Source: Candidatus Dojkabacteria bacterium | GTDB lineage: Bacteria > Patescibacteriota > Dojkabacteria > SC72 | Length of the DNA stretch: 64,000 nt | Assembly (NCBI GenBank): GCA_050950145.1 | Contig: JBMNHB010000001.1 | Coordinates: 428,820-492,819 of the forward strand | Direction of reading: 5' to 3' | In this document: piece after piece, positions 7,666-53,801 of the stretch | Layout: each line of letters begins with the position of its first letter | Position numbering within the stretch: position 1 is the stretch's first letter | Notes under the pieces: generated by a model | The model's input: only the letters and a program-made list of their open reading frames with translations | The model's database searches: none | What the model was told of the DNA's origin: nothing | Position numbers and translations under genes: made by a program

Positions 7666-8967
7666 GCATTAGATAAAAACTAGTGTTACCCAACAACACC
7701 CCGTTAGATAAAAATAGTGTTACCCAAATATACTCTGTAATTAAACTAAATACATCAGAGTATGCAAGACAATATTTTTACTAAAATGGCGGTAGTCAAA
7801 AGAAAAAAAGAATATCTAGAAACTAAAAAACGGGAAGAGAAAACTGAGATACTAGACTGGCTAGTCAAAGATACAAACAGGTCTAGGAAGTCACTCATTA
7901 GATCTCTGAACAATCCAAATATTACAGAGAGAAACATATCTGGAAGAGGTGGAAGGAAAAAGAAATATACTCCACAATCTAAAAACATCGTAAAAATGAT
8001 ATGGCAAGCAAATGATTGTATCTGTGCTGAGAGATTTCATGGTCAAATTGAAGAAACACTAAAAGATTTAAAACAAGCAAACAAACTAGAAGGATATATA
8101 GATAGCGACATTGAGTTGGTGAGGAAAATACCTCTAGGTACACTTAAACTCTTTGTTGCTAAGTTCCCTAAACCTAAAAGAGGAAGTATTAGTTCTTCGG
8201 GAAGTGTGAGAGCATTACAAAAACAAATACCTGTGAGAACTTACTTCTCTACTAACATTAAATCGGGCTTCTTTGGTGTTGACTTTGTTGATCATAATGG
8301 AGGAAATGCTACTGGTAAGTTTGCTAGAACATTGGTATTTACAGACCCTAAAACCACATGGATTGTGAGAAGTGCTTGTCTGGGAAAAGATAGCTTAGCT
8401 GTGGGGAATGCTTTTGAATTGAACAAAAAGAAAATACCATACACAATTGAAGGATTACACTCTGACAATGAACCTGCATTACTAACCTCTCTGCTCTCTT
8501 CTAAGGCTAAAGAAAACAATATATTCATTACTAGAAGCAGAAGTTACAAAAAAGAAGATAATGGACATACAGAACAGAAGAATGGAGACAAAGTGAGAGG
8601 TTTAGTGGGATACCGAAGATATGATACATTACAACATATTGATTTACTTAACAGGATATATGAGATTGATGACCAATTTCAAAATCATTTTGTGCCTTCT
8701 GTGAAATTGAAAGAAAAAGAATTTAATGACTTAGGTAGAGTAATTAAGAAGAAATATGATAGTCCTAAAAGTCCATATCAGAGGGTAATGGAAGAGAAGG
8801 ATATTGATATACAATTCAAGATGTCACTTGCGAGTAAACATTCTAAATTAAATAGGTTAGAATTGTTAGAGGAAAGAGATAAATTGTTAAGAAAGTTAAC
8901 TCGCTTAGGTAACACTATTTTTATCTAACGGGTTTGCATTCGGTAACATTTAGTTTTTATCTAACGG
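7666..8967 (+). mobile_element. Insertion sequence, about 1.3 kb, carrying one DDE (rve-superfamily) transposase gene and bounded by nested terminal inverted repeats.
   Basis: Inner inverted repeats are perfect 24-mers: 7701..7724 ccgttagataaaaatagtgttacc is the reverse complement of 8908..8931. Outer imperfect copies are at 7666..7690 and 8942..8967. The transposase stop codon lies inside the right inverted repeat. A possible TACCC flank occurs on both sides. Confidence 0.7.
7762..8928 (+). CDS. DDE transposase/integrase-core (rve) family protein of the insertion sequence. IS481/IS3-like, family not resolved.
   Basis: 388 aa. The D..D..E triad is spaced like retroviral-integrase-type transposases (VDFVDHNGG ... 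LHSDNEPAL ... NGHTEQKNGDKVRG). It has a basic N-terminal HTH-like region. Confidence 0.7.
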   Translation: MQDNIFTKMAVVKRKKEYLETKKREEKTEILDWLVKDTNRSRKSLIRSLNNPNITERNISGRGGRKKKYTPQSKNIVKMIWQANDCICAERFHGQIEETLKDLKQANKLEGYIDSDIELVRKIPLGTLKLFVAKFPKPKRGSISSSGSVRALQKQIPVRTYFSTNIKSGFFGVDFVDHNGGNATGKFARTLVFTDPKTTWIVRSACLGKDSLAVGNAFELNKKKIPYTIEGLHSDNEPALLTSLLSSKAKENNIFITRSRSYKKEDNGHTEQKNGDKVRGLVGYRRYDTLQHIDLLNRIYEIDDQFQNHFVPSVKLKEKEFNDLGRVIKKKYDSPKSPYQRVMEEKDIDIQFKMSLASKHSKLNRLELLEERDKLLRKLTRLGNTIFI

Positions 8968-9035: not shown

Positions 9036-10946
9036 ATGTCAGAGAATATCAATGAACAAAACAACCTAAGAAACATCGCTATCATCGCACATGTAGACCA
9101 TGGCAAAACAACCTTGGTTGATGCCTTCATGAAGCAAACACACCTCTTTAGAGATAATCAAGAGGAGATGCAACAAACAAGAATACTAGACAAAGGAGAA
9201 CTAGAAAAAGAGAAAGGTATTACAATCAGTGCAAAGAACATCTCCATAGTATATAAAGGAGTAAAGATAAATATTATAGATACACCTGGACACTCCGACT
9301 TTGGTGGAGAGGTAGAAAGAACTCTTAATATGGCAGATAGTTGCCTTCTACTTGTAGATGCAAAAGAAGGAACTATGCCTCAAACAAAATTTGTTCTTAA
9401 AAAAGCACTTGAGCTAGGATTAAAGCCGGTAGTGATAATTAATAAGATAGATAGGAAGTTAGCTAACATTGAAAAAACAACATCTAAAATCAATGACCTC
9501 TTCCTTTCATTAGCTACTAAAGAAGAGCAACTAGACTTCCCAATATACTATGCTATCTCCAGAGAAGGAAAAGTCTTCAAAGAGATGCCAACTGGAGATT
9601 TAACAATACCAGAAACTACAAGTGGGGATCTAACTCCAATATTAGATGAGATAGTTACAAACCTTCCTGCACCAAGTGGAGATATTAACAAACCATTTCA
9701 GATGCAGATAACTAGTATTGAATATGATGAACATCTAGGAAGATACCTAATTGGTAAGATATCAAATGGGAAGGTAAAGGTAGGTGATCCAATTGTTCTT
9801 GTTTCTAACCAAGAAGATTTTGAAAAGAAACAAGGTAGAGTTAATGAGCTTTTTACTAAAGTTGGATTAGAATGGACTCCAATTCAAGAAGGAGGAGTAG
9901 GAGAGATTGTTGCAGTTACAGGTATTAACTCTACAGATATTGGTGCAACACTTTGTAGTGTTGATAATCCAGAGCCATTGCCTGATATTAAGATTACACC
10001 TCCAACAGTTAGAGTAAAGTTCTCTGCTAATACATCCCCATTTGTTGGAAAGGAAGGTAAGTTTGTTACTGCAAAACAACTACAACAGAGGTTAGACCAA
10101 GAAAAGAGATTGAATATTAGCTTGAAGATTGAGAGCAAGGGAGCAAATGCCCACTATGTTTCAGGGAGAGGAGAGTTACAACTTGCAATCTTGGTTGAAC
10201 AGTTAAGAAGAGAAGGATATGAGTTTGAATTAGGAAAACCAGAGGTAATCTTACAAAAGATTGACGGAGTAGAGTGTGAACCATTAGAGGAGTTAATTAT
10301 AGATGCCCCAGAAGAATACCTAAGTGCAATTACAGAAGAGGTTAGTGGAAGAAAAGGAAAGATGGTAAATATGGAAAATGAAGAGGGACAGAGTAGGTTT
10401 ACATACCATATCCTAACTAGAAATCTAATAGGTCTTCATAGGAACTTAATGACAGCAACAAAAGGAACTACCATTATTAACAGTGCTGTTTTAGAATATG
10501 TCCCTTATGAAAAAGGAGAAAACTTATACAGAAAAGGTGTAATCATATCATCAGAGACTGGAACAGCTCTTGCATATGCCCTTATGAGTGTTCAAGAGAG
10601 AGGTAGACTCTTCATTTCAGGTTCAACAAATGTATATGAAGGTATGATAATTGGTATTACTAATACAATGGAGGATGTAGAAGTAAATCCATGTAAAGAG
10701 AGACACAAAACAAATGTAAGAATGGCACATTCACAAGTCACAGAGATTGCTCTTAAAACACCAATCCTACTTACTATTGAATATGCACTGTCATTTATAA
10801 AGGATGATGAGTTGATAGAAGTAACACCTAAACATATACGACTTAGAAAGAAACTTCTTAAAAGCACAGAGAGAATATGGGCAAAGAGAAAGAATCTCAC
10901 CTTCTATGCAAAACAACAGCTTGAGAAACTGGAAGGCCAGGCCTAG
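9036..10946 (+). CDS. typA: Translational GTPase TypA/BipA.
   Basis: The N-terminus AIIAHVDHGKTTLVDAF carries G1 to G4 motifs (DTPGH, NKID). Length and domain order match BipA. Confidence 0.9.
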   Translation: MSENINEQNNLRNIAIIAHVDHGKTTLVDAFMKQTHLFRDNQEEMQQTRILDKGELEKEKGITISAKNISIVYKGVKINIIDTPGHSDFGGEVERTLNMADSCLLLVDAKEGTMPQTKFVLKKALELGLKPVVIINKIDRKLANIEKTTSKINDLFLSLATKEEQLDFPIYYAISREGKVFKEMPTGDLTIPETTSGDLTPILDEIVTNLPAPSGDINKPFQMQITSIEYDEHLGRYLIGKISNGKVKVGDPIVLVSNQEDFEKKQGRVNELFTKVGLEWTPIQEGGVGEIVAVTGINSTDIGATLCSVDNPEPLPDIKITPPTVRVKFSANTSPFVGKEGKFVTAKQLQQRLDQEKRLNISLKIESKGANAHYVSGRGELQLAILVEQLRREGYEFELGKPEVILQKIDGVECEPLEELIIDAPEEYLSAITEEVSGRKGKMVNMENEEGQSRFTYHILTRNLIGLHRNLMTATKGTTIINSAVLEYVPYEKGENLYRKGVIISSETGTALAYALMSVQERGRLFISGSTNVYEGMIIGITNTMEDVEVNPCKERHKTNVRMAHSQVTEIALKTPILLTIEYALSFIKDDELIEVTPKHIRLRKKLLKSTERIWAKRKNLTFYAKQQLEKLEGQA

Positions 10947-11136
10947 GCCTGCCCCTGATTCATAACTTTTTAATCTCACCAAAAGATTACCTACTACTAA
11001 GTAATTACCATATCCGATATCTCCCTAGACCAAAATTCCTACAAAATACAAGGGGTCTCTTTCCAGAAAGGCTCCTGTGGAAAGGGTTGGGAGATGATGA
11101 AATCTAGATTAACGTGGGGCAGACCTAGGTCAGACC
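10935..11136. repeat. About 202-bp miniature inverted-repeat (MITE/REP-pair-like) element, copy A.
   Basis: The left end GGCCAGGCCTAGGCCTGCCCC (10935..10955) overlaps the typA stop codon. The right end GGGGCAGACCTAGGTCAGACC (11116..11136) is its inverted counterpart. The same end motif flanks a 204-bp element at 43070..43273. Confidence 0.55.
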
Positions 11137-11205: not shown

Positions 11206-11466
11206 TTAAAACTCTTTTTTCTCTTCTCTAGCCAATGAGACATTGACAGCTCTACCATCAATCTCTTGACCATTAAGAGCTTCCATTGCTTTCTGTGCTT
11301 CCTCTTCTGTGGACATTGTAACAAAGCCAAATCCCTTAGATCTGTTCTTCATTCTATCCATAATGACAACTGCTTCTTCAACAGTACCATGAGGAGCAAA
11401 TGCTTCCTTCAACTCTTCGTCTCTGACGTTCCAGCTGAGGTTGCCTACAAACAACTTTTTACCCAT
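11206..11466 (-). CDS. RRM-type RNA-binding protein (Rbp/glycine-rich RBP-like).
   Basis: RNP2 LFVGNL and RNP1 KGFGFVTM motifs; 86 aa. Confidence 0.85.
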   Translation of the reverse strand: MGKKLFVGNLSWNVRDEELKEAFAPHGTVEEAVVIMDRMKNRSKGFGFVTMSTEEEAQKAMEALNGQEIDGRAVNVSLAREEKKEF

Positions 11467-14912: not shown

Positions 14913-16688
14913 TTATTTCCAATACCACTCTTCTATATTATGAAATCTTTCATAGGAATGAGAAACTGAATCAAGGTCTATACCAACTAAGTTGTCCCTA
15001 GTAATATATTCATATATAGGATTGTAGAGGAATATCGCTGGTGCATCAGCCATTAAATATTTCTGAAACAGGTGGTATTTCTGCTTTCGTATCTCTTTAT
15101 CCATAGTCTGCCTTCCTTCCTCAAGCAAAATATCTACCCTTCCATAATTGTATCCTGAAAGATTTAAATCTGGGAAATTCGCTTTTAATGAATGCCATAA
15201 GTTATACTGATCTGGATCCACACTAGTCTCTATTTCATACAACAAAAGTTCAAAATCCCTTGTTGAAATAACCTCTTGTGTTATCTGTGTGTAATCTAAC
15301 CTCTCTATCTTTAAAAACACCCCTTCTTCCTTATAATAATCAGCAAGAAGCGTAACTAATCTCTCATTAGACGGGGTTGATAGATAACTAATAGTAAATG
15401 TTAAAATCTCTCCCTGCTGATTTTCAAAATAACCACTATTAGGATTCTTCTTGTAACCAAGTTTTTCAAGCTTCTCAGTCGCTTTAGTAGGATCATATTT
15501 AAGGTAATCAACATCCTTATTATACGCCCAAGATGTTTCAGGTAATGGACCGTTTAGAACTCTACCTCCAACACCATACTCATCAATTAACTTCTCCTTA
15601 TTCAGTAAAAGCGTAAGTATAATCCTGATTTCTTTATCCTTTAATGAATCCTTCCTTGTATTAAAGAATATTAATTTCTCTCTGTCCTCTATAACCAGAT
15701 CATTTCTGACAAAACTATCATATTCTTCAATATAAGAAGTTATCATTCTATCCCAGGAGCCAATTGCATCCAAATTACCAGCTCTAAAAGCCATCTCTAA
15801 AGAATCCCAGTCAGGATACATCTTAAAAACAATATTCTTAATATGAGGTTCATATTTATCATAAGGATTATCAATTAAATATATAGAAGAACTATCCATT
15901 TTTACAAAACTATACTTTCCACTTCCAATCGGACTCTTTGTAAAAACATCAAAAGCCATCTTACTAATTTCAACTTCTTCTAAGTATTTACGAGGAACTA
16001 TATAAATGGACAGTGCTCTAAAAATAACAGGATTCTTCTCTTTAACTCTAAATTGAACAGTATTTTCATCCAGTTTAGTGACTTCCATATCTACAAAAGC
16101 AATACCAACAGAGTCAAAACCCGCTTCTTTAGAAAGTTTTATCGCTGTATCAAATGTAAATACCACATCATCAACAGTAACTTCACTGCCATCATGCCAA
16201 AAATGTCCCTCATCTATTTTAAATTCATAAACCAAACCATCTTCCTTACTCTCCCAATTCTTAGCAATACCAGGTGTAGCATTACCATCACTATCAATAT
16301 TAATAAATTTTTCAAAGATGAGACTATCTATAGATCTCTCAATATAGTTATTTGTTACATACAAAGGATTAAGAGAGTTAACTGTACCTACAACACCACC
16401 AACGAGAGAATCTTTCTTCTGATTACCCCTAACAATCTTTGTAAAAGTAACTGAATTTAAAAAGAGAATAATCAAGAGAGAAATCAAGCCAAAGACTAGA
16501 ATATAACTAATAGGAATAAGTTTCTTAAAAGAATTTACTAAAAACTCAGGATAATTCCAAAAAATATCCCTAAAATCAAAAGGTTTCTTTTCACTAACAG
16601 GAGAAGCCTTTACACTTAATTCCTCAAGGACGACTTTCATTAAAGAATCCTCTTTAGTGAGAACTTTAGCTTTTTTTGTTTTCTTCAT
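14913..16688 (-). CDS. Membrane-anchored family-5 (OppA/DppA-like) solute-binding protein.
   Basis: 591 aa. The N-terminal TM anchor is followed by a region whose size and composition fit SBP_bac_5 (recognition by general similarity only). Confidence 0.55.
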   Translation of the reverse strand: MKKTKKAKVLTKEDSLMKVVLEELSVKASPVSEKKPFDFRDIFWNYPEFLVNSFKKLIPISYILVFGLISLLIILFLNSVTFTKIVRGNQKKDSLVGGVVGTVNSLNPLYVTNNYIERSIDSLIFEKFINIDSDGNATPGIAKNWESKEDGLVYEFKIDEGHFWHDGSEVTVDDVVFTFDTAIKLSKEAGFDSVGIAFVDMEVTKLDENTVQFRVKEKNPVIFRALSIYIVPRKYLEEVEISKMAFDVFTKSPIGSGKYSFVKMDSSSIYLIDNPYDKYEPHIKNIVFKMYPDWDSLEMAFRAGNLDAIGSWDRMITSYIEEYDSFVRNDLVIEDREKLIFFNTRKDSLKDKEIRIILTLLLNKEKLIDEYGVGGRVLNGPLPETSWAYNKDVDYLKYDPTKATEKLEKLGYKKNPNSGYFENQQGEILTFTISYLSTPSNERLVTLLADYYKEEGVFLKIERLDYTQITQEVISTRDFELLLYEIETSVDPDQYNLWHSLKANFPDLNLSGYNYGRVDILLEEGRQTMDKEIRKQKYHLFQKYLMADAPAIFLYNPIYEYITRDNLVGIDLDSVSHSYERFHNIEEWYWK

Positions 16689-16696
16689 AAGACTAC

Positions 16697-16927
16697 TTAC
16701 TTAGAAGATAGTTTTAAAATAAATAGGGATAAGACAATCACTACTACAATTAATGCAATAGTAAAGTAGTAGAGGAACTTTTCTAAACCTCTTTTGGTTC
16801 TGAAAATCTCACCACCTCCACCAAACATTTGCCCTAATCCCTCAGCTCTATTTTGTAAGAGAATACTCACAACTAGTAAAGCACAAACTACTATCTGTGA
16901 TATTAATAATATTTTTGTAGTATCCAT
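16697..16927 (-). CDS. secG: Preprotein translocase subunit SecG.
   Basis: 76 aa with two TM helices and the LLQ...G.G..FGGGG...F..RG motif (ILLQNRAEGLGQMFGGGGEIFRTKRG). Confidence 0.65.
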   Translation of the reverse strand: MDTTKILLISQIVVCALLVVSILLQNRAEGLGQMFGGGGEIFRTKRGLEKFLYYFTIALIVVVIVLSLFILKLSSK

Positions 16928-16955
16928 AGATGGCTATTATACACTAAAAACAAAG

Positions 16956-17366
16956 TTATTGCTTCCTATCAAGCTCTTTATATATCGCAGTAACAAAAGA
17001 TGTAAGGAAAGAAACAACAATAATTGAAATAATAGGAGTTACTGTAAATTCATTAATCTGTAATGTTCCTAATTTTAATTCACTAAATAAAAACTCCTCT
17101 ATTGCGAAATCAACCATAAACATCTTTAAAATATAAAGAGTTCCACTAAGAACGATGGTTCCCATTAAAACATAGGTTATGAAATTACACTTAACTGTTA
17201 GAAAATTAAGAAAAGGACATACAACTAACAAAACAAGACCAACAATTAATAAGATAATGAACAGATATAAAAATGATACGGGAAGATGGATTGCTTCATT
17301 AAACAGACTAGCAAAAAAATGAAAGACAAGCATTCCAACTAAAGCTAACTTAACACCTTCTTTCAT
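16956..17366 (-). CDS. Hypothetical integral membrane protein (4 predicted TM helices).
   Basis: Hydrophobic 136-aa ORF. No recognisable motif. Confidence 0.45.
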   Translation of the reverse strand: MKEGVKLALVGMLVFHFFASLFNEAIHLPVSFLYLFIILLIVGLVLLVVCPFLNFLTVKCNFITYVLMGTIVLSGTLYILKMFMVDFAIEEFLFSELKLGTLQINEFTVTPIISIIVVSFLTSFVTAIYKELDRKQ

Positions 17367-32325: not shown

Positions 32326-33705
32326 CTATAAAGTCCCTAGCTTTTTAAGAAAATCTGGAATCTGATAAAGGCCAAGGGAGTGACTTCCCTTCAGAAGTAT
32401 TGCAACTTTCTTATCCTTTAATCCTTGTAATTTTGTATTAAGTAGGGCTGCCACTTCATCTGCCGATTCTATCTTTTCACCAACACCAAAATCATCAATA
32501 TTCTCTCCAACATAATAAACTTCATTAAAGTTACATTCTTTAACTAATTTCCCTATCTCTACATGCCTCTCCTTTGAGACACTACCTAATTCTTTCATAT
32601 CACCTAATATAGCAATAGTATAGAAATCTTTCCCAAATATTTTCATAAAGGTCTCAATAGACATCTTCATTGAGGTTGGATTCGCATTGTATGCATCATT
32701 AATAATTGTTACATTATCATATTCAAGCTTTTGAAACCTACCATCTTGCCCTTCATACTGTTTAATACTCTTCACACAATTATCTATACTTACTCCTAAC
32801 TCATTAGCAACTATAATTGCTGCCATGGCATCACAAACAAAACCTTCTCCATATACACTCAAATCAACAGGTACTACATTATCATCATAGTATCTGAATT
32901 TGAAATGAGTTCCCTCCTTATTAACAGAAATATCAAAAATTTGGAATGTAGCTCCTTCTGTCTGACCAAATGTAATTAAGCTAGAATTTTTGTTGTAATT
33001 CTCAGCAATATGAACAAGCCTTTCATCATCAATGTTTAAAATTAAAGGTTTACCAGTTCGTTCCATATAGTCCGCAAGATCTTTTTTCTCTTGGAAAATT
33101 TCATTAATAGAACCTAATTTCTCTGCATGAACATCTCCTACATTAAGTAGAATTCCATAATCAGGATCTACAGAGTTAACATGCCATGCAATTTCTCCCT
33201 TTCTATCCATTCCACACTCCAAAACAATTACATCCTCGTTATTATACTGACCAAGAAGGACTGCATTTCCCCATACCGTATTATACCTATCAGCAGATAG
33301 TACTTTCATATAGTTCTCAAGAATTGTAACAAGCATCTTTTTTGTTGTTGTCTTCCCCGTACTACCTGTGATTGCAATTACTGGCTTCCTGATATATCCA
33401 ATAGAGTAGTTTAGAACCTTCATAAGACCTTCTTCAATGCTATCAACAATAATTACTGGTTTTGTAACTCCCTCTAAGAAAGATTGTTTTTTATTTTCAC
33501 ATAAAGATACAGAGCAACCAGCATCTAAGGACTGCGCAATGAAGGCATGTCCATCAAACCTTTCACCTACAATTGGAATATACAAGTCATCAGGATTTAC
33601 CTGTCTAGAATCATGAGTAAAACCTGTGAAAAAAGCATTCTCATCATAGTTTCTAAATCCAAACTCTGGGAACCTTTCCTTTATATCTCTTAAAAAAATC
33701 TTCAT
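32326..33705 (-). CDS. murF: Mur ligase, most likely UDP-MurNAc-tripeptide--D-Ala-D-Ala ligase (MurF).
   Basis: MurF-type N-terminus (DSRQV..DDLYIPIVGERFDGHAF). ATP P-loop ITGSTGKTTTK. 459 aa. Confidence 0.75.
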   Translation of the reverse strand: MKIFLRDIKERFPEFGFRNYDENAFFTGFTHDSRQVNPDDLYIPIVGERFDGHAFIAQSLDAGCSVSLCENKKQSFLEGVTKPVIIVDSIEEGLMKVLNYSIGYIRKPVIAITGSTGKTTTKKMLVTILENYMKVLSADRYNTVWGNAVLLGQYNNEDVIVLECGMDRKGEIAWHVNSVDPDYGILLNVGDVHAEKLGSINEIFQEKKDLADYMERTGKPLILNIDDERLVHIAENYNKNSSLITFGQTEGATFQIFDISVNKEGTHFKFRYYDDNVVPVDLSVYGEGFVCDAMAAIIVANELGVSIDNCVKSIKQYEGQDGRFQKLEYDNVTIINDAYNANPTSMKMSIETFMKIFGKDFYTIAILGDMKELGSVSKERHVEIGKLVKECNFNEVYYVGENIDDFGVGEKIESADEVAALLNTKLQGLKDKKVAILLKGSHSLGLYQIPDFLKKLGTL

Positions 33706-33778
33706 AGCAGTACATCTCTAAGTTTATCCTTAACATAATATATTGGTTCTGTGGTTATTTATCAAGTCCACCACCTTT

Positions 33779-34290
33779 AGGGTCTGTCCCAGATCTGTCC
33801 CCTGTTTTCCATACCTTTCTGCCTGTTTATCAAGGTTTGTTGGTTTGGGTACTTCTAATTTCGGCTTACAAAAATCATTCGTAATACGACGCTTCGGATT
33901 AGGAAACGATTATACAACAAGAAAAATAAAGAAAATCGTCCTAAGGGTCTATCCCAGATCTGTCCCCTGTTTTCCAAACCTTTCTGCCTACCTATCAAGG
34001 TTTCTTGGTTTGGATACTTCTGATTTCGGCTTACAAAAATCATTCGTAATACGACGCTTCGGATTAGGAAACGATTATACAACAAGAAAAATAAAGAAAA
34101 TCGTCCTAAGGGTCTGTCCCAGATCTGTCCCCTGTTTTCCATACCTTTCTGCCTGTTTATCAAGGTTTGTTGGTTTGGGTACTTCTAATTTCGGCTTACA
34201 AAAATCATTCGTAATACGACGCTTCGGATTAGGAAACGGTTATACAACAAGAAAAACAAAGATCTGTTCTAGATCTGTCCCTCCAGCTAT
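33779..34290. repeat. Tandem repeat, 165-bp unit x about 3.1 copies, in the murF/mraZ divergent intergenic region.
   Basis: Units start at 33779, 33944 and 34109 (AGGGTCTGTCCCAGATCTGTCCCC...). Copies 1 and 3 are nearly identical and copy 2 carries about 10 substitutions. A truncated fourth copy is at about 34259. The plus and minus ORFs called over it are repeat artefacts. Confidence 0.9.
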
Positions 34291-34399
34291 CGGTTGAAAA
34301 GGTAGACGAGATAGGGAGGAGGTATATATGGAAAAAGCCTGCGCTTTTGGATTAGTTCTTGGCCTAGAGTGTTATATCTTGGCCTGTAATATTTTTCTC

Positions 34400-34472
34400 T
34401 TGACGTGTACAACAGATACGGGATATATTAGTGGCAAGAAGTGGTAGAAAGTGGTGAAATATGATATAGTGG
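34400..34472 (+). promoter_or_regulatory. mraZ (Pmra) promoter overlapped by an array of MraZ-box direct repeats.
   Basis: TTGACG (34400..34405), 17-nt spacer, ATATAT (34423..34428). AGTGG occurs at 34430, 34440 and 34450, an exact 10-bp phase, with a fourth at 34468. The mraZ ATG is at 34478. Confidence 0.6.
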
Positions 34473-34477
34473 AAAAT

Positions 34478-34921
34478 ATGATAATCGGAGAATACAAAAG
34501 TAAAATAGGAGAAAAGAAAAGAGTATCACTTCCAACAAAGTTTAGGGAAGAGATTGGTGAAGATTTAATTCTCACCAGAGGATATGAAGAAGCCCTAATC
34601 CTTGTAAATAAGAAAATGTGGAAAAATGTAGCAAAAGAAGTAATAAATGGCTCTTTTACAAATAAAAATATTAGAGATACAAGTAGATTCTTAGTAGGAA
34701 GTGCAAAAGAAATTGAAATGGATGGACAAGGAAGATTTGTAATCCCCCAAGCTCTTTTTGATCATGCAGGTTTAGGAGATGAAATTGTATTTATAGGACT
34801 TGTTAACTGGATTGAGATTTGGGATGCAAAGAAATGGGCAGAAAGAGTAGAGTACCTACAAAAACATGGAGATGAAATAGCTCAAGAGATAGGTAAAATG
34901 TCAGAACAAAAGAATGGATAA
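34478..34921 (+). CDS. mraZ: Transcriptional regulator MraZ. The track ORF starts at the GTG at 34451; the conserved N-terminus begins at the ATG at 34478.
   Basis: MIIGEYKSKIGEKKRVSLPTKFRE and a second half-domain DGQGRFVIPQALFDHAGL (duplicated SpoVT/AbrB-like). Next gene is rsmH. Confidence 0.85.
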   Translation: MIIGEYKSKIGEKKRVSLPTKFREEIGEDLILTRGYEEALILVNKKMWKNVAKEVINGSFTNKNIRDTSRFLVGSAKEIEMDGQGRFVIPQALFDHAGLGDEIVFIGLVNWIEIWDAKKWAERVEYLQKHGDEIAQEIGKMSEQKNG

Positions 34922-43069: not shown

Positions 43070-43273
43070 GGTCTGACCTAGGTCTGCCCCCAGTTAAGAA
43101 AAATTTAATCTCAAGGATTATGCACTTCACAAAAGGTCTCATAACCCTCGGCATTGGTAGTATATACGAGTTACAAGTACAGACACAGGGACAGACACCT
43201 CAAAAGGGTATATCAGAAACAAAGATTTGAGCCTTCAAAAAGTTATGAACGAAGGTCAGACCTAGGTCAGGCC
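43070..43273. repeat. About 204-bp miniature inverted-repeat (MITE/REP-pair-like) element, copy B.
   Basis: Left end GGTCTGACCTAGGTCTGCCCCC (43070..43091). Right end GGTCAGACCTAGGTCAGGCC (43254..43273). Same termini and size as the 10935..11136 element. The internal sequences share a TTTAATCTCA block near the left end. Confidence 0.5.
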
Positions 43274-43291
43274 TATGTAGTATAATCAGGT

Positions 43292-44497
43292 ATGAGTAAC
43301 GAACCACTAGCATCAAAGTATAGACCTAAAACTCTTGAAGAGTTTGTAGGACAAGAACACCTAGTAGGAAAGAACGGTCCAATAAGGAAGTTTTTGGAAA
43401 CAGGAAATATCCCATCTATGATATTCTGGGGTCCACCAGGTACAGGTAAAACAACCTTAGCATACATCCTTTCTTTAAATCTCTACTATGATTTTCACAA
43501 AATGCAGGCTGTAAATAGTGGAAAGGAACATCTAAGGAAAATTATTAAAATAGCAATCGGTAATCAACAGTATGGTAAGAAAACAATCCTCTTTCTAGAT
43601 GAAATACACAGATGGAACAAAGCACAACAAGACACACTCTTACCATATGTAGAGAAAGGAATCATTACACTAATTGGTGCAACTACAGAAAACCCATCAT
43701 TTACTGTAATATCTGCACTTCTTTCTAGAACAAAAGTATTTGTATTCAAACAACAAACAGAAGAAGATATATACAGTCTCCTAAAGCGAATATCAAAAGA
43801 AGAATATCCTGATATTAAAATATCAAAGAAAGTATTAAAACAGATGGCTAATCTCTCAAATGGAGATATTAGATCTGCACTAAATATACTGGAAATGAGT
43901 TCTACACTAGCAAATGCAACAGATGGAGAGAAGAAAGAGATAACTACAGACATATTAACAACAACAGTACAAAAGCCAGTATATTATGACAAAACAGGGG
44001 AAGAACACTACAACATTATCTCCGCCATACACAAATCAATGAGGTCATCTAATCCTGATGCTGCTTGTTACTGGACAGGAAGGATGTTAGCAGGAGGAGA
44101 AGACCCACTGTACATCGCAAGAAGAATGCTAAGGTTTGCAAGTGAAGATATCGGTAATGCAGACCCACAAGCTGTCATATTAGCCAATGCAGTATATGAG
44201 GCTTGTCAGAAGATTGGTATGCCTGAGTGTGAAGTATTCCTTATGCAATTAGCAATATATCTCTCCAATGCACCTAAAGATAATACAGCATACAGAGTAG
44301 AGGGTGAGGTAAAGATGGATATTGAGAAGTATGGTAATCTTCCAGTACCCATGAATATACGAAATGCCCCTACAAAATTAATGAAAGAAATAGGGTATGG
44401 TAAAGGCTATGAATATGACCATGACTTACCAAGTAAGAAGTCAGATCAACAATGTATGCCAGATAAATTAAAGAACAGGAAATATATTAAGAAATAG
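43292..44497 (+). CDS. rarA: Replication-associated recombination protein A (RarA/MgsA AAA+ ATPase).
   Basis: KYRPKTLEEFVGQEHL ... MIFWGPPGTGKTTLA. A C-terminal MgsA-specific region is present. Confidence 0.9.
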   Translation: MSNEPLASKYRPKTLEEFVGQEHLVGKNGPIRKFLETGNIPSMIFWGPPGTGKTTLAYILSLNLYYDFHKMQAVNSGKEHLRKIIKIAIGNQQYGKKTILFLDEIHRWNKAQQDTLLPYVEKGIITLIGATTENPSFTVISALLSRTKVFVFKQQTEEDIYSLLKRISKEEYPDIKISKKVLKQMANLSNGDIRSALNILEMSSTLANATDGEKKEITTDILTTTVQKPVYYDKTGEEHYNIISAIHKSMRSSNPDAACYWTGRMLAGGEDPLYIARRMLRFASEDIGNADPQAVILANAVYEACQKIGMPECEVFLMQLAIYLSNAPKDNTAYRVEGEVKMDIEKYGNLPVPMNIRNAPTKLMKEIGYGKGYEYDHDLPSKKSDQQCMPDKLKNRKYIKK

Positions 44498-44586: not shown

Positions 44587-46164
44587 ATGGAAGTTCCGGA
44601 GTTTGAACAAGAAAAAAACACCCCTTACTATAAAGATGAAGAGATTCTAGCTTCCACTGAAAAGAATGTTGACCCTCAAAAGATATATTATAATATACTT
44701 TCTCAGATTTCAGAGAAGATAGATTCAATAGAAACTCACATTAAGAAAGTATCAGTATTTCCGAAGGATAAGGATGATAATGATAATACTGATTATAATT
44801 TGGAAGGTTTTAGAGATGATGAAGAAGTAGTTAGTATTGCTATTGAAAATAACGGTTATGCTTTAAAGTTTGCTTCTGAGAGAATAAGGAGTATAAAAAG
44901 AGTCGTAACAAAAGCAGTTGAAAACTATGGCTATGCTTTAAGATATGTTTCTAACAAACTAAAAGCTGATAAAGATACTGTCTTTGCTGCAGTTGAAAGT
45001 ATTGGTAAAGCATTAAAATTCGCCTCAGGAGAACTACAAGATGATAAAGATATTGTCTTAGCAGCAGTTAAAAAGGATGGTTTAGCTTTAGAATTTGCTT
45101 CAAAAGATTTCCATGACGATGAGGAAGTCGTTACTACTGCTATTAATAATAATGGTTATGCTTTAAAGTTTGCTTCAGAAAGATTAAGAAATAACAGAGA
45201 AATAGTTCTAAAGGCTGTTAGAAGTAATGGCTATGCTTTAAAGTTTGCTTCAGAAGAACTACAAAACGATAAATATGTTGTCCTAACAGCAGTTGAAAGA
45301 AATAATGAAGCTTTAAGATTTGCTTCAAAAGAATTACAAGCTGACAAAGATATTATCCTAGCTGCAGTTAAAAATGATGGCTTTGTTTTAGAATTTGCTT
45401 CAAAAGAATTACAAGCTGATAAAGATGTTGTTTTAATAGCAGTTAGAAATGATGGTTATGCTTTAAGATTTGCTTCAGAAGAACTACAAAACAATAGAAA
45501 TGTTGTCCTAACAACAGTTGGAAAGAATGGTTTAGCTTTAGAGTTTGCTTCAGAAGAACTACAAAATGACAAAGATGTTGTTCTGACAGCAGTTAAAAAT
45601 GATGGTTATGCACTATATTATGCTTCGGAAGAACTGCAAAATGACAAAGATGTTGTCCTTGTAGCAGTTGGAAAAGATGGTGAAGCTTTAGAGTTTGCTT
45701 CAAAGAGACTTCGTAATGATGAAGATGTAGTTATGAGAGCTATTGAGAATAACGGTAATGCTTTAAGATTTGCTTCAGAGAGATTGAGAAATAATAAAGA
45801 GATAACTCTAAAGGCTGTTAGAAAATATGGTCCTGTTTTAGCATATCTTTCCGAACAATTAAGAGATGATAAAGAGATTGTCATGGAAGCAATTAAAAGC
45901 TATGGCTATGTTCTACACTTTGCCTCAGAGCGACTAAGAAATAATAGAGAGATAGCTCTAAGTGCGGTTAAGAGGGATGCTAGAAACTTCAGAAATCTTT
46001 CAGCAGAGTTTAGAAATGACAGAGAATTAGCTATAATTGCAGTTAAAGGCGATGCAATGAATCTAGAATTTGTTTCGGATAAACTAAAACATGACAGGCT
46101 AATAGTCATAGCAGCAGTCAACAATAATGGTTATACATTAAAGTTTACTCCCACATTATTCTAA
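44587..46164 (+). CDS. Tandem-repeat protein with about 17 copies of a 25-aa (75-bp) repeat (DUF4116-like, as recalled).
   Basis: The unit ALxFASEELQNDKDVVLxAVKNDGY recurs from residue 85 or so to the C-terminus. The N-terminus is acidic and non-repetitive. Confidence 0.7.
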   Translation: MEVPEFEQEKNTPYYKDEEILASTEKNVDPQKIYYNILSQISEKIDSIETHIKKVSVFPKDKDDNDNTDYNLEGFRDDEEVVSIAIENNGYALKFASERIRSIKRVVTKAVENYGYALRYVSNKLKADKDTVFAAVESIGKALKFASGELQDDKDIVLAAVKKDGLALEFASKDFHDDEEVVTTAINNNGYALKFASERLRNNREIVLKAVRSNGYALKFASEELQNDKYVVLTAVERNNEALRFASKELQADKDIILAAVKNDGFVLEFASKELQADKDVVLIAVRNDGYALRFASEELQNNRNVVLTTVGKNGLALEFASEELQNDKDVVLTAVKNDGYALYYASEELQNDKDVVLVAVGKDGEALEFASKRLRNDEDVVMRAIENNGNALRFASERLRNNKEITLKAVRKYGPVLAYLSEQLRDDKEIVMEAIKSYGYVLHFASERLRNNREIALSAVKRDARNFRNLSAEFRNDRELAIIAVKGDAMNLEFVSDKLKHDRLIVIAAVNNNGYTLKFTPTLF

Positions 46165-53036: not shown

Positions 53037-53057
53037 CAGACCTGATATAATAGACAT

Positions 53058-53801
53058 ATGAGTTTAAAACACGATTCATTTAAAAAAATAAGAAAAGAGA
53101 AAAACAAATGGAGATTAGATACCCCTGAGGATTTCATAGAGATGGAAGATGCATTTCTTAAAGAAAGACTTATGAGTAAAGAACCTACCATTACAACTAC
53201 TGTTAGAATTACAGGCGGTAAAGCTAGAAACTTTACTCTTGAAGTACCTAAAGCTACAAGACCAATGACAGATAGAATGAAAGTTAGAGTCTTTGATATT
53301 CTCAGAGAAGATATTGTAAATAAAGACATTCTCGATCTCTACGCAGGAGCTGGTTCTTTTGGATTAGAAGCTCTCTCAAGAGGAGCAAAGAGTGCAACAT
53401 TTGTAGATGCATCAAAAAATGCAAATATTGTTCTTAAAAAGAATGTTGCACATACTGGTTTTCTTGTTGAATCTGAGATTGTCAAAGAAAAGGTTGAGGA
53501 ATATCTTTTTAGAATGACAAACAAAGAGAAAGAGGAGTTTCAAACCTTTGACATTATCTTCATGGACCCTCCATACAAACTTTTTAATACCAAGAAAACA
53601 TTTAAGATGGAACAAATTATCAACATGGCTTCTGAACTACTACCTGGAGTACGAAATCCACAGATAAAGAAATGGAAAGGAGCATTAATACTTAAACATC
53701 CTAAAAGGTATGATTTAGAGAAGATTGATATTAAACATTTAAGATTAGTTGAGAGTATTAATCTTGGTTTGAATGTAATTTCTTTCTTTATTGTTAAATA
53801 A
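53058..53801 (+). CDS. rsmD: 16S rRNA m2G966 methyltransferase RsmD family. It has an N-terminal extension, so the true start may be internal at about 53172.
   Basis: ITGGKARNF...TRPMTDRMKVRVFDIL...LDLYAGAGSFGLEALSRGA...FMDPPY. Confidence 0.75.
   Translation: MSLKHDSFKKIRKEKNKWRLDTPEDFIEMEDAFLKERLMSKEPTITTTVRITGGKARNFTLEVPKATRPMTDRMKVRVFDILREDIVNKDILDLYAGAGSFGLEALSRGAKSATFVDASKNANIVLKKNVAHTGFLVESEIVKEKVEEYLFRMTNKEKEEFQTFDIIFMDPPYKLFNTKKTFKMEQIINMASELLPGVRNPQIKKWKGALILKHPKRYDLEKIDIKHLRLVESINLGLNVISFFIVK

Follow-up and report, generated by a model that had tools for sequence, protein, structure and literature searches.

The 165-bp tandem repeat between the divergent murF and mraZ genes of a Candidatus Dojkabacteria bacterium, a host in the candidate phyla radiation (CPR, or Patescibacteria), was analysed in a 64,000-nucleotide stretch of contig JBMNHB010000001.1, hereafter the window. 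The nearest relatives of its RsmH, LepA, and RarA proteins are likewise all named Dojkabacteria. Each unit is probably a non-autonomous, non-coding element of a family native to this lineage that resembles repetitive extragenic palindromic (REP) sequences and REP doublets forming hairpins (REPINs), and which at this locus has been tandemly amplified and is likely neutral. The unit belongs to this dispersed family by a shared terminal motif, a paralogue upstream of lepA, a series of copy numbers among relatives and a chromosomal site that occurs in full, mini and empty states. We favor a REPIN-type interpretation because doublets of an imperfect palindrome enclose a spacer of low conservation, because these palindromes also bracket a Y1 transposase gene at a fixed site, and because the members are extragenic and patchy in their presence. 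A preliminary description of the repeat had overlooked its membership in a dispersed REP/REPIN-like family tied to a Y1 transposase.

Tandem Repeats Finder identified a 165-bp tandem repeat at 33779-34262 with 2.9 copies, 94% matches, zero indels, and a score of 898, and repeat finding placed the starts of three 165-nt copies at 33779, 33944, and 34109. Pfam matches define a Mur ligase gene on one side (32326-33705, minus strand) and on the other side mraZ (34478-34921), followed by genes for RsmH, an FtsL-size open reading frame (ORF) and a penicillin-binding protein, all on the plus strand. Both analyses agree with the tandem repeat and with the division and cell wall (dcw) gene context given in the preliminary description. 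The likely mraZ start is the ATG at 34478, which yields a protein of 147 aa, the same length as called in relatives. The array accounts for about 505 of the 772 bases of the murF-mraZ intergenic region, and unit sub-sequences of 17 and 29 nt are found in the 64-kb window only at the three array sites (0.03 and 0 expected, respectively). The components of the array are as follows.

33779..33943, plus strand: unit 1, type "a" body (Tandem Repeats Finder and repeat finding).
33781..33800, plus strand: terminal motif copy 1, GGTCTGTCC-CA-GATCTGTCC (motif scans, 0 in shuffles).
33944..34108, plus strand: unit 2, type "b" body, with 8 substitutions relative to unit 1; orthologue of unit 2 of the two-unit relatives (95% to that of L007).
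33946..33965, plus strand: terminal motif copy 2 (GGTCTATCCCAGATCTGTCC), at the junction of units 1 and 2 (motif scans).
34109..34260, plus strand: unit 3, body of type "a", its terminal tail shortened (copy alignment).
34111..34130, plus strand: terminal motif copy 3, at the junction of units 2 and 3 (motif scans).
34261..34280, plus strand: right-end terminal motif (GATCTGTTCTAGATCTGTCC), which aligns with the right-end motifs of one- and two-unit relatives.

The near-identity of copies 1 and 3 and the divergence of copy 2, both noted previously, are reproduced by alignment: over the first 150 nt copy 3 matches copy 1 at 99%, whereas units 1 and 2 are 95% identical over 150 nt, with all 8 substitutions confined to unit positions 8-79 and the 3' 85 nt of both copies identical. 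The tail of copy 3 diverges from position 155 on and is shorter than in the other copies. Repeat sequence does continue beyond unit 3, as the preliminary description had it, but what it took for a truncated fourth unit is an additional copy, at 34261-34280, of the 20-bp motif found at the start of each unit, i.e., the terminal motif of the element, which closes the array.

To define the family, members were sought with an nhmmer profile of the unit and with fuzzy motif scans; the genomes of relatives were compared as 13-64-kb pieces, labelled L001-L092. The family consists of non-coding elements of ~180-205 bp, each bounded by a 20-bp GC-rich quasi-palindromic motif, (GGTCNGACC)TA(GGTCNGACC), i.e., (GGTC-N-GACC)-TA-(GGTC-N-GACC), formed by two 9-bp half-sites 11 bp apart. 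In the murF-mraZ/lepA subfamily the motif takes the variant form that opens the array at 33781..33800, likewise with two 9-bp half-sites 11 bp apart. Each half-site is palindromic save for its central base, and therefore "direct" and "inverted" copies of the motif differ very little. Dojkabacteria loci totalling 873 kb yielded 61 occurrences of the motif, every one at an element boundary, and shuffles yielded none. The window contains two members outside the array.

10935..11136: E1, 202 bp, between the convergent genes for TypA/BipA (9036-10946) and an RRM-domain protein (11206-11466, minus strand).
43070..43273: E3, 204 bp, upstream of rarA (nhmmer and motif scans).

The last four TypA codons and the TAG stop lie within the left motif of E1, and the right motif of E3 ends 7 nt before the TATAAT (43281-43286) of rarA, whose ATG is at 43292. 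The bodies of E1, E3, and the 165-bp unit are barely alignable; the ends are shared. Presence of E3 varies among relatives, one of which keeps half a motif only (L085), and the body of the window E3 is strongly unlike that of the L078 E3, although the rarA DNA of the two is 92.7% identical. In the rarA upstream region of L083 (9039-9791, minus strand) there is a Cys-rich ORF of 250 aa that begins with a hydrophobic segment and has no Pfam match on record; L084 encodes the same RarA protein as L083 but has E3 where L083 has this ORF.

A paralogue of the murF-mraZ unit lies upstream of lepA in four contigs from the metagenome scan; it is 77-81% identical to the unit, body included, and this at a non-homologous locus points to copying of the element as a whole. 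The right-end 20-bp motif of the lepA-locus element is in inverted orientation. L066, L069-L071, and L073 carry the element, L072 and L087-L092 (LepA 98-99% identical) lack it, and a strongly diverged version with the same architecture is found in L074 (LepA 92%). In the left motif of the lepA-locus element, the 11-bp iterons (AGATCTGTCCC) number three in L070 (9218-9250) but two in L069, L071, and L073, a difference that is due to small-scale slippage inside the motif.

The ends of individual elements pair with each other, with 18-33 end-to-end pairs and z-scores of -3.2 to -6.7, in E1 (18-32 pairs, z -3.2 to -3.4), E3, the murF-mraZ element of L067, the lepA element of L070, the L078 mini element described below, and the E3 of L078. 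Folding of the ends is weaker in the L003 element E2 (z ~-1.4), the L084 E3 (-0.7 to -2.7), and the L081 mini element (-2.4 to -4.0). Complementary ends of the REPIN kind are therefore a property of most single-copy members and are lacking in the window array, in which every motif lies in direct register. We regard the array as derived from the family element.

The transposase link emerged from L083-L086, which carry a gene for a 158-aa Y1 (HUH) transposase between the SpoU methylase gene and rsmD (16563-17039, minus strand). The protein matches Pfam Y1_Tnp with 35.1 bits (gathering cutoff, 23), and its best and sole relevant NCBIfam match is "REP-associated tyrosine transposase" (RAYT; REP_Tyr_transpos, E 6e-9, 35.9 bits), with no IS200 model matched in NCBIfam at E <= 0.01. 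Its sequence shows a "HYH" of the HUH type and, toward the C terminus, a Tyr ("EYLRQNP"). The family motif exactly flanks the gene, as GGCCTGGCCTAGGTCTGCCC at 16555 (16555-16574) and as GGGCAGACCTAGGCCAGACC at 17082 (17082-17101), and the TAG stop codon of the transposase gene is the center of the left motif. Motif copies on both sides of a Y1 gene, the arrangement by which REP-RAYT pairs are recognized, were found in relatives only. At either end of the Y1 element, ~45 bp recur at 79-90% identity in E1 (79-86%), E3, and the mini elements. We presume that the Y1 protein binds and mobilizes the elements of the family.

Three states of the SpoU-rsmD site were found: the full element (L083-L086), a 206-bp mini element (L078, L079, L081, L082), and the empty site of the window.

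53037..53045, plus strand: empty site (CAGACCTGA) between SpoU and rsmD, at which relatives carry the Y1 element or the 206-bp mini element.

The mini element is non-coding and has the same ends as the full Y1 element (L078, 18385-18590); according to tblastn with the Y1 protein, mini elements retain only the last ~15 Y1 codons. The stop codon of SpoU is supplied by the element in relatives. The Y1 gene occupies the same site in two lineages that are 90% identical, its 90% cluster has 7 members, and among the loci compared the full element was found at a single chromosomal site.

Copy number was compared by BLAST of the unit against 62 RsmH-anchored GTDB loci, by a 23-mer scan of metagenome contigs, and in contigs obtained via RarA homologues. 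The numbers of units at murF-mraZ are as follows.

3 units: the window and its Joint Genome Institute (JGI) twin, L001.
2 units: L007, L065, L068.
1 unit: L003, L067, L081.
0 units: more distant Dojkabacteria (L004-L006, L008 and others; L078, L083-L086).

The gain of units suspected in the preliminary description is borne out by this series of 0, 1, 2, or 3 units. The left flank of L081, with one unit, is 100% identical over 1216 bp to that of L007 and L068, with two, and the single L081 unit is a hybrid of the unit 1 head and the unit 2 tail of the L007 pair, from which it follows that units are gained or lost within a species-level population. Unit 2 of the window is orthologous to unit 2 of L007 (95% identity), and the first duplication is therefore older than the split of the two lineages, whereas the third copy, or conversion of the third copy, is recent. 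Identity to L003 is mosaic along the locus, with 72% in murF, 85-87% in the unit, and 93.5% in mraZ-rsmH; because of this mosaic divergence, conservation of the unit cannot be taken as selection.

Copies that are 99% identical (1 and 3), in units of about short-read length, raise the possibility of an assembly artefact or of a mis-assembled copy number. An independent Logan short-read contig does end 33 nt into unit 1, just ahead of the first copy-distinguishing site, where a break is expected over a repeat. However, two-unit arrays with the same junction are present in three independent assemblies (L007, L065, L068), the 8 private substitutions of unit 2 anchor the order u1-u2-u3, and both flanks are unique. 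An identical sequence is also found in the JGI contig (L001), which is possibly derived from the same data. An artefact is thus very unlikely, and the true number of units in the array could exceed three.

The array may have been built in a few steps. One family member would have inserted between murF and mraZ in a narrow clade, with a paralogue upstream of lepA. Head-to-tail amplification at murF-mraZ would then likely have occurred by slippage or unequal exchange involving the terminal motifs of its two ends. The near symmetry of the motif lets these line up in direct register, and AGATCTGTCCC is common to both ends. At the internal junction (...AAATCG..AAGGTCTGTCC / CAGATCTGTCCCC TGTTTT...) the sequence resembles the first half of an L003-type right end joined to the second half of a left end. 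Alternatively, the transposase could have inserted a second copy beside the first. A later gain or gene conversion would have made copies 1 and 3 alike, and the a-b-a order of units requires two steps or a gene conversion. Most likely, the array is now a neutral passenger whose only effect is a longer spacer between the two divergent promoters of murF and mraZ.

Some observations weigh against a REP/REPIN-like element associated with a RAYT. The NCBIfam score of the Y1 protein is below the RAYT cutoff of 80, and the protein has no sequence match in PDB. The murF-mraZ/lepA subfamily shares with the Y1 element only the ~20-bp motif, in a diverged GTCC form, and is without the ~45-bp ends. There is no Y1 gene within the 64-kb window, where its usual locus is empty, and current mobility in this genome is conjectural. 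Copy density is low, with 3 loci in 64 kb, and the spacers of ~160 bp are longer than in described REPINs. Element junctions have neither a target-site duplication nor a fixed target sequence, and the motif abuts the -10 box at rarA, rsmD, and tatD (L010/L019), as would suit a regulatory use by the host. The left flanks of elements often end in ACA or TTA, and, despite the inverted ends, no consistent duplication of the kind expected of classical DDE-type miniature inverted-repeat transposable elements (MITEs) was found at the E1, E3, L067, or lepA junctions.

A more ambitious proposal would have the transposase itself build and resolve the tandem arrays by acting on the quasi-symmetric terminal motifs, as a domesticated Y1/REPIN-type system in the streamlined genomes of CPR bacteria (Dojkabacteria) that makes the murF-mraZ spacer reversibly expandable (0-3+ units) and alters the coupling of the divergent promoters. 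We consider this unlikely. If it were true, the series of 1, 2, and 3 units with sequenced junctions would give the missing mechanism for the formation of tandem REPINs and bacterial interspersed mosaic elements (BIMEs).

The preliminary description had suggested that the repeat could have a role at the "master promoter" of the dcw cluster. The promoters and the candidate operator beside the array are located as follows.

33737..33765, minus strand: murF promoter-like site TTGATA-17-TATATT, outside the array.
34400..34429, plus strand: mraZ/dcw promoter-like site TTGACG-18-TATATT, 120 bp downstream of the array.
34430..34472, plus strand: MraZ-operator-like direct repeats, with AGTGG at 34430, 34440, and 34450 and a fourth at 34468, read from the sequence.

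The first three AGTGG boxes follow the mraZ -10 directly at an exact 10-bp period (34430-34454), and the fourth box lies 18 bp further. We take the boxes at 34430-34472 to be the pattern of published MraZ boxes, which would make them a probable MraZ operator. The mraZ promoter-like site, the AGTGG boxes, and a block at 34361-34399 are kept in every Dojkabacteria locus fetched, including those without repeat units, and therefore the array sits in the variable part of the spacer, outside the control region proper. A role at the master promoter finds no support in this arrangement, in which the mraZ -35/-10 and operator lie at least ~120 bp downstream and are conserved in Dojkabacteria lacking the element. 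Because the murF promoter, the mraZ promoter, and the MraZ operator are all outside the array, no control of dcw by the array is suggested, and it is probably without a role in dcw regulation. The array was also considered as an MraZ operator in its own right and rejected, since its motif is TCTGTCC at an 11-bp period and the AGTGG boxes, with their 10-bp period, lie outside it.

The conserved block at 34361-34399, upstream of the mraZ -35, has two GGCCT 20 bp apart and then an A/T-rich stretch, and a conserved CTATCGG is found at 34287-34293; both are retained even by relatives with short spacers. At 34316-34448, a strong Shine-Dalgarno sequence (GGGAGGAGG) and an ATG at 34329 open a 39-codon Cys-rich hydrophobic ORF that overlaps the mraZ promoter. 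This ORF is probably not a gene, and its start codon is ATA in L007, L003, and L081.

A regulatory explanation can also be framed around the motif itself: the motifs would be operators of a host DNA-binding regulator of the OmpR/PhoB or ParR style, and the array would multiply the sites and tune murF/mraZ expression. The 11-bp spacing of the half-sites corresponds to the period of a helical turn, the first motif lies ~15 bp upstream of the murF -35-like hexamer, motifs end 0-18 nt before the -10 box at rarA, rsmD, and tatD (L010, L019), and two 20-bp motif copies are retained in L035 with 42 bp between them. This is difficult to reconcile with the same motif flanking the transposase gene and holding its stop codon, with the position of E1 between the 3' ends of convergent genes, and with sites that come and go among near-identical strains while promoters persist in empty sites. 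Furthermore, murF, lepA, rarA, rsmD, and typA form no evident regulon, and no candidate regulator was found. Regulator operators are therefore an unlikely explanation of the motifs. Two further candidates, a response-regulator site of the Pho-box/WalR type (direct repeats of 7 bp at a period of 11 bp) and a box resembling that of LexA (CTG-N8-CAG), were dropped, the half-site being a 9-bp quasi-palindrome that flanks the transposase gene. An inverton, i.e., an invertible promoter between inverted repeats, was rejected as well: orientation varies neither among the five lepA-locus contigs nor among the murF-mraZ contigs, and no internal promoter is conserved.

Upstream of tatD-like genes, L010 has a perfect 24-bp palindrome (GGGGTCAGACCTAGGTCTGACCCC; 10941-10964) 15 nt before a TACAAT, and L019 has a variant pair (..ACCTAGG..) ~130 bp apart (7972-7991 and 8121-8140). 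At rarA (43281-43294), rsmD (53046-53060), and lepA in relatives (L070, 9446-9461), a TATAAT lies just 5-7 nt before the ATG, a short distance which suggests that leaderless mRNAs are common in the lineage.

A repeated structured RNA had also been proposed in the preliminary description, and this was not supported. Each unit would then be a small RNA (sRNA) gene or a cis-acting structured RNA, and the array a tandem sRNA cluster like LhrC1-4 or PrrF1/2. A central block of ~50 nt is ~90% conserved between the murF-mraZ and lepA paralogues, and one C-G to U-A change fits a TTTYGG..CCRAAA hairpin. However, Rfam 15 gave no match at gathering score in the window and only chance-level matches (E 4-9) in 33600-34600, and no RNA family matched the units at E <= 10. 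The units contain no terminator-like and no promoter-like site, and relatives do not share a minus-strand -10-like TATAAT. When the units were folded as RNA and as DNA, in five registers and on both strands, the energies were weak, and dinucleotide shuffles fold as well as the window units do (z of the units, -0.5 to +0.2). RNAalifold with 10 copies over ~200 columns gave consensus energies of just -16.5 kcal/mol on the plus strand and -14.9 on the minus strand, and the covariation amounts to just 2-3 pairs, largely or wholly due to the single split between the murF-mraZ and lepA paralogues. An RNA function of the unit is accordingly very unlikely.

The ORFs that cross the array had been dismissed as artefacts, and we concur. 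The largest (184 aa, 33743-34297, plus strand) is open throughout because 165 is a multiple of 3 (55 codons), and it is called as a gene in the JGI annotation, which might point to a real repeat protein. Its only match among 5.8 billion clustered proteins is to itself, Pfam gives sub-threshold fragments only, and the differences between units 1 and 2 are nearly all non-synonymous. The TTG start is without an evident ribosome-binding site, and one-unit relatives have no counterpart, so that the chance of a genuine protein is vanishingly small. The exclusion of a CRISPR array likewise stands, as it would comprise 23-50-bp repeats with unique spacers, whereas the 145 bp between motifs are 93-99% identical between units. 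A scan of unit sub-sequences against viral contigs gave no match.

Elsewhere in the window, a gene at 44587-46164 encodes a 525-aa protein of ~10 DUF4116 repeats and contains nested in-frame tandem repeats of 75, 150, and 300 bp (Tandem Repeats Finder, 44815-45824).

The assignment of the array to a dispersed family disposes of a misleading clue: what lies at the dcw control region is most likely a selfish or commensal element that has been amplified, rather than a regulatory innovation, and it leaves the promoter and MraZ operator beside it untouched. The natural full, mini, and empty states and the states with 0-3 units can be used to study the origin of tandem REPINs and BIMEs, which is open in the literature (PMC3337134). 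Arrays of this kind break short-read assemblies of CPR genomes and yield spurious ORFs, e.g., the 184-aa "hypothetical protein." CPR genomes are small and usually thought to be repeat-poor. A literature search on repeats, MITEs, or RAYTs in Dojkabacteria, Patescibacteria, or CPR returned nothing relevant, and the present family documents a REP/REPIN-like family together with a Y1 transposase in a CPR lineage.

Among known small repeats, the Correia elements of Neisseria (CREE/NEMIS) and the BOX elements of Streptococcus pneumoniae are small non-coding intergenic elements with inverted repeats, often near promoters, and the tandem modules inside BOX elements vary in number. Their mobilization is DDE-type or unknown, and Correia elements carry TA duplications, whereas the family described here is linked to a Y1 transposase and has no duplication. 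A further comparison is with the PATEs and MITE-like deletion derivatives of IS200/IS605 elements. As in these, there is a Y1 (HUH) element with structured ends and no target-site duplication, and short non-coding derivatives keep only the ends, one of them having formed at the site of the full element (L078/L081 compared with L083). The full element was seen at one conserved site only and not in multiple copies, and its best family match is RAYT rather than the IS200 TnpA.

The BIME-2 arrays of Escherichia coli are tandem pairs of REP Y-Z2 (Gilson et al. 1991, cited in PMC3337134). They resemble the window array as intergenic head-to-tail modules that contain REPs and vary in copy number among strains, and they differ in that the sequences are unrelated, the 165-bp unit is far longer, and the motif here has no GTAG/CGTC tag at its end. 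In REP superfamilies, one end of the palindrome bears a tetranucleotide tag, GTAG or CGTC (PMC3733652); neither is present in the motif GGTCNGACCTAGGTCNGACC or its immediate flanks. A GTAG beside E3 occurs also in the empty L085 site and therefore belongs to the rarA promoter.

The reference system for REPINs and RAYTs is Pseudomonas fluorescens SBW25 (Bertels & Rainey 2011, PMC3116915, PMC3337134). Among higher-order arrangements of REPINs, Bertels & Rainey describe tandem repetition of up to five as the most common, as in the BIMEs of E. coli, and its origin as unexplained (PMC3337134). The Dojkabacteria family differs from it in having spacers of ~140-165 bp instead of 34-110 bp, in terminal motifs that are each a doublet of 9-bp palindromes, and in an array whose units are without end complementarity; copy number is low, the Y1 protein falls below the RAYT cutoff, and the host belongs to the CPR. 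As in the SBW25 REPINs, the spacer is poorly conserved and lies between short imperfect palindromes in inverted arrangement, the orientation of each palindrome is given by its central base, the ends pair into a hairpin, and the members are extragenic. As in REPIN/RAYT systems, a Y1 transposase gene stands between copies of the same palindrome at a fixed position in the chromosome. The type of element is thus most likely a known one, REPIN/BIME-like and of the Y1 family, and what is new is a member in an unusual CPR host.

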